From the NCBI RefSeq assembly GCF_045037415.1, contig NZ_CP173438.1: a DNA stretch of 64,000 bases. One strand, given 5' to 3'. The stretch comes from Escherichia coli (GTDB lineage: Bacteria > Pseudomonadota > Gammaproteobacteria > Enterobacterales > Enterobacteriaceae). Shown in pieces: positions 15,001 through 18,000 of the stretch. Made by a program: the position numbers. Position 1 is the stretch's first letter. Every line of letters starts with the position of its first letter.

Positions 15001-18000
15001 TGCTTGCCACCGCTAAACGTTATCCGTTAACGCCGCTGCTTTATACGCTCATTTTCTTTCACGCCATCATCCTGATGGTCGGCGGGCAATACACCTACGC
15101 GAAAGTCCCCGTTGGTTTTGAGGTGCAGGAATGGCTGGGGTTGAGCCGTAATCCGTATGACAAACTGGGACATTTTTTCCAGGGGCTGGTGCCTGCACTG
15201 GTGGCACGAGAGATCCTTGTACGCGGGATGTACGTTCGCGGACGTAAGATGGTGGCGTTTCTGGTCTGCTGCGTGGCGCTGGCGATAAGCGCGATGTATG
15301 AATTAATCGAGTGGTTGGCAGCGCTGGCAATGGGCCAGGGAGCTGATGATTTTCTCGGCACCCAGGGCGACCAGTGGGACACGCAATCCGATATGTTCTG
15401 CGCGCTGCTTGGCGCATTAACGACGGTGATATTCCTCGCTCGCTTTCATTGCCGCCAGCTACGGCGCTTTGGCTTAATCACCAGAGCGCCGGAAGCGATT
15501 ACCCCTTAACGGTGCAACCAGCCTGGCAGCCAGTCGCCGTGGGCGGCAATCAGGTCGTCAACAAGAGCATATATTTCGTCAATGCCCAGCACGGCGGCAG
15601 TATGCGGGTCCATCATCGCGGCGTGGTAAACACGGTCGCGATTTTCCGTAAGAATAGCTTCTGTCAGCAGCGTCTGTACGTTGATGTTGGTTTGCATCAG
15701 GGCGGCCAGATGCGAAGGTAGCGTACCGGCTTTGGTCGGCTGAATGCCATTAGCATCAACCAGACAGGCCACTTCCACGCAACATCCTTGTGGCAGGTTA
15801 TCAATCAAACCATCGTTACGGACATTGCCATAAATCACACTCGGCTCGCCAGTCCAGATAGCGTTCATGATTGTGCTGGCATATTCCCGTGACGGTTTAA
15901 TATCAATCCGGGAGGCGTTTTTATAATCCTCCAGCTCTTTATGCCAGTTCGCCAGCTGCTCGACGCAGCGTTTCGGGTACTCATCCAGCGGTACTTTATA
16001 ACGCTCAATCAAATCCTCACGACCTGGCTTAATAAACCACGGTGTGTACTCAGCAAAATGTTCTGACGATTCTGTGACGAAGTAGCCCAGCTTTTTGAAC
16101 ATTTCGTAACGCACAATATTCTGGCAGCGAGTATTACCATGAATATTTGGCTTCGGTGCCTGCCCTGCTTCATAAGCCGCCAGCAATTCAGGATAGAGAT
16201 TCACGTAGCTACCGTCTGCGGTTTTACGCTCCAGTTCCAGGTAAAACGCCATATGGTTGATACCTGCGCAACGGTAACGCAGCGTAGCCGGATCGATATT
16301 GAGGTCACGCGCCAGCTCTTCCGCCGTTCCCTGCACCGAATGGCACAGCCCTACCTGCTTGATATGCGGATAGCGTGCATACATCGCCCAGGTATTCATC
16401 GCCATTGGGTTAACGTAGTTGAGCATGGTGGCATCGGGGCAGACTTCCGTCATGTCCTCGCAAATCTGCCACAGGTGCGGAATGGTACGTAGCGCACGCA
16501 TAATGCCGCCCGGCCCCAGCGTATCGGCAATGGTTTGTTCCAGACCATGCCGCTTACAGACCTCGAAATCAGTCACCGTGCAAGGTTCATAACCGCCAAT
16601 CTGAAATGCCACCACCACAAAATCAGCATCCTGTAAGGCTTCTTTCTGTTGGGTGTGGCAGGTGATTTTGCCGCTGGCCCCTGCTGAATCCATCAACTTG
16701 CGCACCACAATGTGTGACTCTTCCAGGCGGGTGGGATCGATATCCATCAGGGCAATATGCGCCGTTTTCAGCGCCTCACGATGGAACACATCACCAAGAA
16801 TATTTTTAACGAAAATCGTCGAACCAGCGCCGATAAATGTAATTTTAGGTGCAGACATCATGCAGATCTCCTGGCTTGCTTGAATGACTTCATCATGGCA
16901 GGCGAATCTGCAGAAAACCTCCGGCTTCCAGGTTGAGCATTCCCATAAACTCATATCCTAAGTGGCACATCAATAGATCTGAGTTTATGGGAATAAATTA
17001 CCTGAAAAGCTGAATAATCGACCCCAATCTTCTCATCCGCTCTCCTCGCACCTCCAGGGAGAGGAATAAAACCGTGCGCCTATTCGCAGTCATCCTCCCT
17101 CACTCCTGCCATAATTCTGATATTCCAGGAAAGAGAGTCATCCATGAATACAGATACGTTTATGTGCAGCAGCGACGAAAAGCAGACCCGTAGCCCACTG
17201 TCGCTGTATTCAGAATACCAGCGGATGGAAATTGAGTTTCGCGCACCGCATATCATGCCCACCAGCCACTGGCATGGTCAGGTCGAAGTGAATGTGCCTT
17301 TCGATGGCGATGTGGAATACCTGATCAACAATGAAAAAGTGAATATCAATCAGGGTCATATCACGCTGTTCTGGGCCTGTACACCGCACCAACTAACAGA
17401 TACCGGAACCTGTCAGAGCATGGCGATTCTTAATCTGCCGATGCATCTGTTTCTCTCCTGGCCGCTGGATAAAGACCTGATTAACCACGTTACTCACGGC
17501 ATGGTGATCAAATCACTGGCGACACAGCAACTTAGCCCGTTTGAAGTGCGCCGCTGGCAGCAGGAATTAAACAGTCCGAACGAGCAAATTCGCCAGCTCG
17601 CCATTGATGAAATTGGCCTGATGCTCAAGCGATTTAGCCTCTCTGGCTGGGAACCGATTCTGGTCAATAAAACCTCGCGCACACACAAAAACAGTGTCTC
17701 GCGCCATGCGCAATTTTATGTCAGCCAGATGCTGGGCTTTATTGCCGAAAACTATGATCAGGCGCTGACCATCAACGATGTGGCTGAGCACGTCAAACTT
17801 AACGCCAACTATGCAATGGGGATATTCCAGCGGGTCATGCAATTGACGATGAAACAGTACATAACCGCGATGCGCATCAACCACGTTCGCGCATTACTGA
17901 GCGATACCGATAAAAGTATTCTCGATATTGCCCTGACGGCAGGCTTTCGTTCGAGTAGCCGTTTTTACAGCACGTTCGGCAAATATGTCGGCATGTCGCC

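Follow-up and report, generated by a model that had tools for sequence, protein, structure and literature searches.

An Escherichia coli ST131-type mel locus without melB carries a deletion scar that appears older than the species

Results

The window contains a natural melB-less mel allele

The mel locus of a phylogroup B2 Escherichia coli chromosome lacks melB and carries in its place a 23-bp scar, which appears to be shared by descent with several other Escherichia species. The DNA analyzed here (the window) is a stretch of 64,000 nucleotides from contig NZ_CP173438.1. Taken as a whole, its best explanation, which we hold with high confidence, is that it comes from the chromosome of an ST131-type E. 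coli of phylogroup B2 with a natural melB-less mel allele. Compared with JJ1887 (ST131), only two substitutions (22312, A versus G; 28559, C versus T) and one 1-nt indel were observed across 64 kb, and ST131 genomes (JJ1887, O25b:H4 and others) were 100% identical to the 2.5-kb mel region of the window. The features of this region are summarized in Table 1.

Table 1. Features at and around the mel junction of the window
Feature	Position	Strand	Basis or use
fumB	13090..14736	+	Upstream neighbor; flank for divergence comparisons
yjdF (DUF2238 inner-membrane protein), 216-aa long-tail allele	14859..15509	+	ORF; JJ1887 annotation is yjdF
Inverted repeat, 11 nt, 8-nt loop	15462..15491		Repeat search
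23-bp filler AGAGCGCCGGAAGCGATTACCCC	15483..15505		blastn and manual alignment to MG1655
TTAA, overlapping convergent stops of melA and yjdF	15506..15509		Sequence and ORF list
melA, alpha-galactosidase, intact 451 aa	15506..16861	-	ORF and JJ1887 annotation
melR-melA divergent control region, B2-type allele	16862..17143		Alignment
melR, AraC-family activator, intact 302 aa	17144..18052	+	ORF and JJ1887 annotation

The original prediction, which was made from the sequence of the window, claimed that melB is absent. This was the case: no copy of melB was detected in the 64-kb window by tblastn with K-12 MelB or by blastn with the K-12 melB region, and the blastn search gave three REP-like matches of 35-41 nt and nothing more. 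In K-12 MG1655, the gene order is melR, melA, melB, yjdF, fumB and dcuB. Thus, the order melR, melA, melB, yjdF, on which the prediction relied, is correct, and melA and yjdF do not overlap in K-12, where melB and its spacers intervene. The window does not possess a melB gene downstream of melA in the same operon and hence has no complete K-12-type melAB operon. Instead, the stop codon of yjdF (TAA, 15507-15509, plus strand) and that of melA (TAA, 15508-15506, minus strand) share a TTAA tetranucleotide and there are zero intergenic bases, in agreement with the prediction. The YjdF protein, which had been expected to be longer than the K-12 protein of about 209 residues, was indeed longer: YjdF of MG1655 has 209 residues and ends with GLITG, whereas YjdF of the window has 216 residues and ends with GLITRAPEAITP, a tail with seven additional residues. 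Residues 209-216 (RAPEAITP) come from the junction filler.

Both remaining mel genes are well conserved. The dN/dS values of the window genes against K-12 were 0.11 for yjdF, 0.03 for melA and 0.02 for melR. For example, melA differs from the K-12 gene by 41 synonymous and 4 non-synonymous changes, and melA dN/dS across the deletion carriers was 0.02-0.05. These substitution patterns indicate that melA and melR are kept as functional genes by strong purifying selection.

Two other regions of the window should be mentioned. The ORF of fdhF (58821-60968) is split by an in-frame TGA codon at 59238-59240 (GTC TGA CAC GGC CCA), which we take to be the selenocysteine codon of formate dehydrogenase H. 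The fdhF gene of JJ1887 has one C fewer just downstream of this TGA and is annotated as frameshifted; the copy in the window looks intact. At positions 1-7949, annotation transfer from JJ1887 places a gene for an S6-family autotransporter peptidase on the minus strand, with its start near 3697 and its other end cut by the window edge. Genes for a fimbrial usher, a chaperone and a small hypothetical protein adjoin it, beside yjdI and a GNAT gene.

A 23-bp filler replaces 1668 bp of the K-12 locus

To map the breakpoints, we aligned positions 11000-21000 of the window to the reverse-complemented K-12 locus. Positions 11416-15482 were colinear with K-12 until 6 nt short of the yjdF end, and colinearity resumed at 15506, at the melA stop codon. 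Between these breakpoints (15482/15506), the 23-bp sequence AGAGCGCCGGAAGCGATTACCCC (15483-15505) stands in for 1668 bp of K-12. This stretch begins with the last sense codon and stop codon of yjdF and continues with 138 bp of spacer DNA, the 1422-bp melB gene and the 102 bp between melB and melA. A REP-like repeat is part of the yjdF-melB spacer of K-12, and copies of it are present in the window near 32.4, 35.0 and 40.3 kb. At the protein level, G209 and the stop codon of K-12 YjdF are replaced by RAPEAITP and a stop codon, which are read via the filler. The suspicion in the original prediction that the 3′ end of yjdF is a product of the deletion junction was therefore correct. The new TAA of yjdF is composed of two bases that complement the melA stop codon and the complement of the last base of the final Arg codon of melA. 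On the basis of this alignment, we propose that an old illegitimate deletion removed approximately 1.67 kb and left the 23-bp filler; yjdF is now read through the filler to a new stop codon overlapping the complement of the melA stop codon.

We searched for the source of the filler. In the segment of K-12 that is deleted, the best match, GCGCCGGAA in the melA-melB spacer, was 9 nt long and was not significant: 195 of 1000 shuffled sequences scored as well. The right-hand 13-15 nt of the filler had no copy within 5 kb or in the K-12 region. For the left-hand part, an inverted repeat (CGGCGCTTTGG and CCAGAGCGCCG) was found: the left arm lies in yjdF (15462-15472), and the right arm consists of two yjdF nucleotides (CC) and the first nine nucleotides of the filler. 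On both strands, the minimum-free-energy fold includes this repeat (z = -3.0 and -3.6), and the chance that eight filler bases pair in register is about 1e-3; covariation was not observed. The first nine nucleotides of the filler would then have been copied from yjdF 15462-15470, as its complement, by snap-back (templated) synthesis during repair of the deletion. We infer that snap-back synthesis fits these nine nucleotides and leaves 14 of the 23 unexplained.

In Citrobacter amalonaticus AUH_CA_2023_1, the locus of which has no mel genes, YjdF ends with GLTRPDA, which resembles the GLITRAPEA stretch of the Escherichia protein. The long YjdF tail might, on this very short stretch from a single genome, derive from an older end of the coding sequence instead of being filler alone.

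The inverted repeat at 15462-15491 was also considered as an intrinsic bidirectional terminator. However, a U-run does not follow the hairpin on either strand, as read from the sequence, and terminator-like sites in the region are not above chance. This candidate was therefore rejected, and the convergent melA and yjdF transcripts probably overlap. A search of positions 13000-19000 against Rfam families gave zero matches.

The melB-less allele is common and polymorphic in E. coli

A 120-bp junction probe gave a full-length identical match in 1264 of 5426 complete E. coli genomes, counted irrespective of phylogroup. In the same set, melB was present in 4136 genomes (approximately 76%) and melA in 5399, and about 26 genomes lacked the entire locus. 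Because the melB-positive genomes and the junction carriers add up to 5400, the two classes are essentially disjoint. The carriers are polymorphic at the junction: the overlapping stops are TTAA or TTAG, and there are variants of the filler. In the TTAG carriers, yjdF ends with TAG, and melA has CGC in place of CGT as its final codon; strain C7 possesses TTAG and two changes in the filler. This variation among carriers indicates that the allele is old.

Judging from the published B2-specific absence of melB and the match of the window to an ST131 genome, the melB-less allele is probably fixed or nearly fixed in phylogroup B2. However, ETEC1748, one of the carriers, has K-12-like flanks. Therefore, the allele is not strictly confined to B2.

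In strain WP5-S18-ESBL-07 (NZ_AP022159.1, 4606279-4606438), a 165-nt fragment of the melB 3′ end with 94.5% identity was observed under a hypothetical protein beside crfC, off the usual mel position.

The scar is present in other Escherichia species

We scanned related species with YjdF, using one genome per species; none of E. fergusonii, E. marmotae and E. ruysiae was among the genomes retrieved. The 216-aa YjdF with the long tail was found in four genomes: Escherichia sp. E1V33, SCPM-O-B-8794 (a divergent lineage deposited as E. coli), E. whittamii and E. albertii. In the first three, melA is the next gene, the same 4-nt stop overlap is present and the filler is recognizably identical. In the E. 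albertii type strain, positions 4902-5681 of the extracted locus are colinear with window 14760-15539 (87.6% identity), a stretch that spans the filler and reaches 34 nt into the 3′ end of melA. From there, the E. albertii sequence jumps to window 18042, where the final 11 nt of melR begin, and runs on into adiA. This arrangement indicates that a second deletion of approximately 2.5 kb, covering melA and melR, occurred in E. albertii on a chromosome that already bore the melB scar.

Flank identities to the window were 90-97% in E1V33, SCPM-O-B-8794 and E. whittamii (90-94% in E. whittamii) and 88-92% in E. albertii. Because these values correspond to ordinary between-species divergence, the scar in these genomes is not a recent import from B2. 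In neighbor-joining trees of fumB, yjdF, melA and melR, the other species are placed outside the E. coli clade, and within this clade melB-positive and deletion alleles are intermixed. The same scar is thus found in other Escherichia species together with species-typical flanks. Therefore, these comparisons indicate that the deletion allele is shared by descent with several Escherichia species and that the deletion predates E. coli.

The melR-melA control region behaves differently. In the B2-type allele (the window and strain C7), about 36 differences from K-12 were observed in 200 bp (16900-17100). They concentrate in the spacer between the two inverted MelR-site repeats and on the side that faces melR; apart from one G-to-T, the MelR-site repeats themselves are unchanged. 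Because E1V33, E. whittamii and ETEC1748 are K-12-like in this region, the divergent version belongs to B2-like strains only and does not go with the deletion.

The melB segment of E. coli appears younger than its neighbors

The order yjdF-melB-melA-melR is also found in C. amalonaticus S646 and Kluyvera sichuanensis, and therefore the melB-containing arrangement is the older one in the family. MelB of E. coli is 85-87% identical to MelB proteins of Salmonella, Citrobacter and Kluyvera, and is no more distant from them than these genera are from each other. Because its distance is comparable to the between-genus distance, melB is not a recent foreign import. A foreign donor was looked for and rejected: the nearest non-E. 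coli MelB is that of S. bongori (87%), and those of other genera are 81-86% identical. Of three apparent MelB intermediates at 89-93% (P0002, P0003 and P0004), P0002 and P0003 are chimeric or error-ridden K-12-like metagenome contigs.

Within E. coli, melB is very uniform, and 4127 of the 4136 copies are at least 99% identical to the K-12 gene. The dS values against K-12 were 0.003-0.030 for melB, 0.026-0.134 for melA, 0.033-0.132 for yjdF and 0.057-0.148 for fumB; thus, in melB-positive strains, melB dS is 2-9 times below that of the flanks. Escherichia sp. MOD1-EC7003 matches K-12 at 99.5-100% in melB and in the spacer between melB and melA but at 96-97% in fumB, yjdF and melA; its dS is 0.015 for melB and 0.13-0.15 for the flanks. 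We note this identity contrast as a signal of recent transfer of the melB segment between lineages. Furthermore, ETEC1748 (deletion) and NMBU-W10C18 (melB-positive) possess near-identical haplotypes from fumB to melR. Clustered differences between them are confined to 15434, 15476 and 15479 (window-equivalent positions) and the indel, and the others are scattered single bases. This near-identity shows that the allele state swaps by short-tract homologous recombination. Taken together, the melB segment of E. coli has a far younger common ancestor than its neighbors and has moved horizontally, and the melB-positive allele, now in about three-quarters of E. coli genomes, would have spread through the species comparatively recently by homologous recombination.

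This pattern fits three histories alike: re-acquisition of melB after an ancestral loss, a long-lived presence/absence polymorphism, and a sweep of one melB allele. We tentatively consider re-acquisition, which is possible although we do not regard it as the probable history. According to this idea, the ancestor of Escherichia was already melB-less, with a scar older than the split of E. albertii and E. coli, and melB was restored in non-B2 E. coli and in MOD1-EC7003 by homologous recombination and then spread; the donor would be an unsampled Escherichia-like lineage that always kept melB. The scar is present in every sampled lineage outside E. coli sensu stricto except MOD1-EC7003, the coalescence of melB is far younger than that of its flanks (dS 0.015-0.03 against 0.06-0.15), the melB of MOD1-EC7003 is 99.5% identical to that of K-12 on flanks of 96-97%, and switching of the allele state by short-tract recombination is demonstrable. 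However, a donor lineage is not known, each outgroup species is represented by one genome, and a long-lived polymorphism shuffled by recombination or a selective sweep of melB yields the identical pattern. Moreover, melibiose fermentation is reported to vary in E. marmotae (PMC11546641), a hint that other species, too, may possess both alleles. If re-acquisition is true, what has been called a B2-specific loss of melB would be the condition from which the genus Escherichia started, and an operon would have been repaired by recombination at a locus that has served for decades as a model of transport and regulation.

The conventional view is a single loss of melB in the B2 ancestor within E. coli, with the other E. 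coli retaining melAB vertically. It is consistent with the older yjdF-melB-melA-melR order shared by C. amalonaticus S646 and Kluyvera, with the between-genus distance of E. coli MelB described above, which speaks against recent foreign import, and with the listing of melB as specifically absent in B2 (Table 5 of PMC2617782). We nevertheless judge this view improbable. The same scar, filler and stop overlap occur in E1V33, SCPM-O-B-8794, E. whittamii and E. albertii on flanks at species-level divergence, and hence the deletion did not arise in the B2 ancestor. In addition, the low melB dS relative to the flanks is not expected under plain vertical retention.

Finally, the original prediction raised the possibility that an assembly error or an engineered deletion created the zero-length junction, and for this there is only the unusual look of a 4-nt stop overlap without a spacer. 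An FRT or loxP site is 34 bp in length, and the filler is shorter. An artifact is extremely unlikely because the identical 120-bp junction is found in the 1264 independent complete genomes from many laboratories and hosts, its sequence varies among carriers, the scar is present in four other Escherichia genomes, and the filler, which predates any laboratory, is unrelated sequence without a source in the K-12 segment; the junction is neither unique to this assembly nor a recombinase or vector scar.

Discussion

The absence of melB from B2 strains has already been published, and the deletion is a natural, documented B2 trait. In Table 5 of Touchon et al. 2009 (PLoS Genet, PMC2617782), melB is among the functions specifically absent from group B2 strains, the B2 strains of that study being UTI89, CFT073, 536, S88, APEC O1, ED1a and E2348/69. 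Touchon et al. 2020 (PMC7314097) report a negative association between B2 and the melibiose pathway. To this published absence, our analysis adds how old the scar is, how the junction is built in detail and that it occurs in several members of the genus. Literature searches on the junction itself (melB with yjdF; melB with E. albertii) gave nothing relevant.

The original prediction stated that the strain keeps intact melA and melR and lacks the dedicated permease. The intact ORFs and the absence of melB agree with this statement, but the lack of the permease does not by itself mean an inability to use melibiose: in UTI89 (B2), which has no MelB, D-melibiose use needs functional lacY (2025 preprint, bioRxiv 10.64898/2025.12.03.691977). 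By analogy with UTI89, melibiose would enter via LacY and be hydrolyzed by MelA, so that MelB would be dispensable; lacY lies outside the 64-kb window. E. coli is quoted as 75% melibiose-positive (PMC11546641). Although this value lies near the 76% of genomes that possess melB, little weight should be placed on the agreement, since strains without melB can rely on LacY.

These results have several implications. Strains of E. coli classically vary in melibiose fermentation, and the junction provides a compact, sequence-defined marker of the melB-less allele. The absence of melB explains why uropathogenic B2 strains depend on lacY to use melibiose. Given how old the scar is across the genus and how little melB varies, vertical inheritance may not account for the melAB operon that textbooks describe for K-12, and this bears on how pan-genome studies read gene losses in B2. 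For the window itself, the junction is a routine B2/ST131 lineage marker, which annotation pipelines already handle. Thus, the finding is of moderate interest for E. coli genome evolution and of little wider surprise.

The window shares with the K-12 melR/melAB locus its site and its neighbors (dcuB, fumB, yjdF, melA, melR and adiA); melA and melR are 96.7% and 98.5% identical to K-12 at the nucleotide level, and the MelR-binding repeats are retained. In contrast to K-12, the window possesses neither melB nor the two melB spacers (1668 bp), and no spacer, REP-like element or terminator-like hairpin separates melA from yjdF. With the strains of Touchon et al. (2009, 2020), the window shares the melB-less B2 state, of which it is an ST131 example. 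Those studies report gene absence, and the available text of the two papers gave no description of the junction, the yjdF extension or a scar in divergent Escherichia.

Members of the Citrobacter freundii complex (C. youngae and Citrobacter spp. Cu233, wls619 and MGH106) resemble the window in having fumB-yjdF-melA-melR without melB. However, their junction contains a spacer of about 58 bp with a GC-rich hairpin, the YjdF tail ends with SAN and the stop codons do not overlap. Because the junctions differ, the Citrobacter deletion is an event separate from the Escherichia scar. Judging from these genomes, loss of melB or of the entire mel locus appears to recur in the family. Mel genes are also absent beside yjdF in C. 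werkmanii, C. amalonaticus AUH and S. enterica arizonae.

A further natural deletion of the mel locus is known in E. coli O80:H2, where "70mel", a mel operon deletion with a 70-bp insert, serves as a lineage marker (PMC11945584). Like the allele of the window, it carries a short filler whose origin is unknown. In the 70mel strains, melA, melB and melR are all gone and melibiose is not fermented, whereas the window has lost melB alone and maintains melA and melR.
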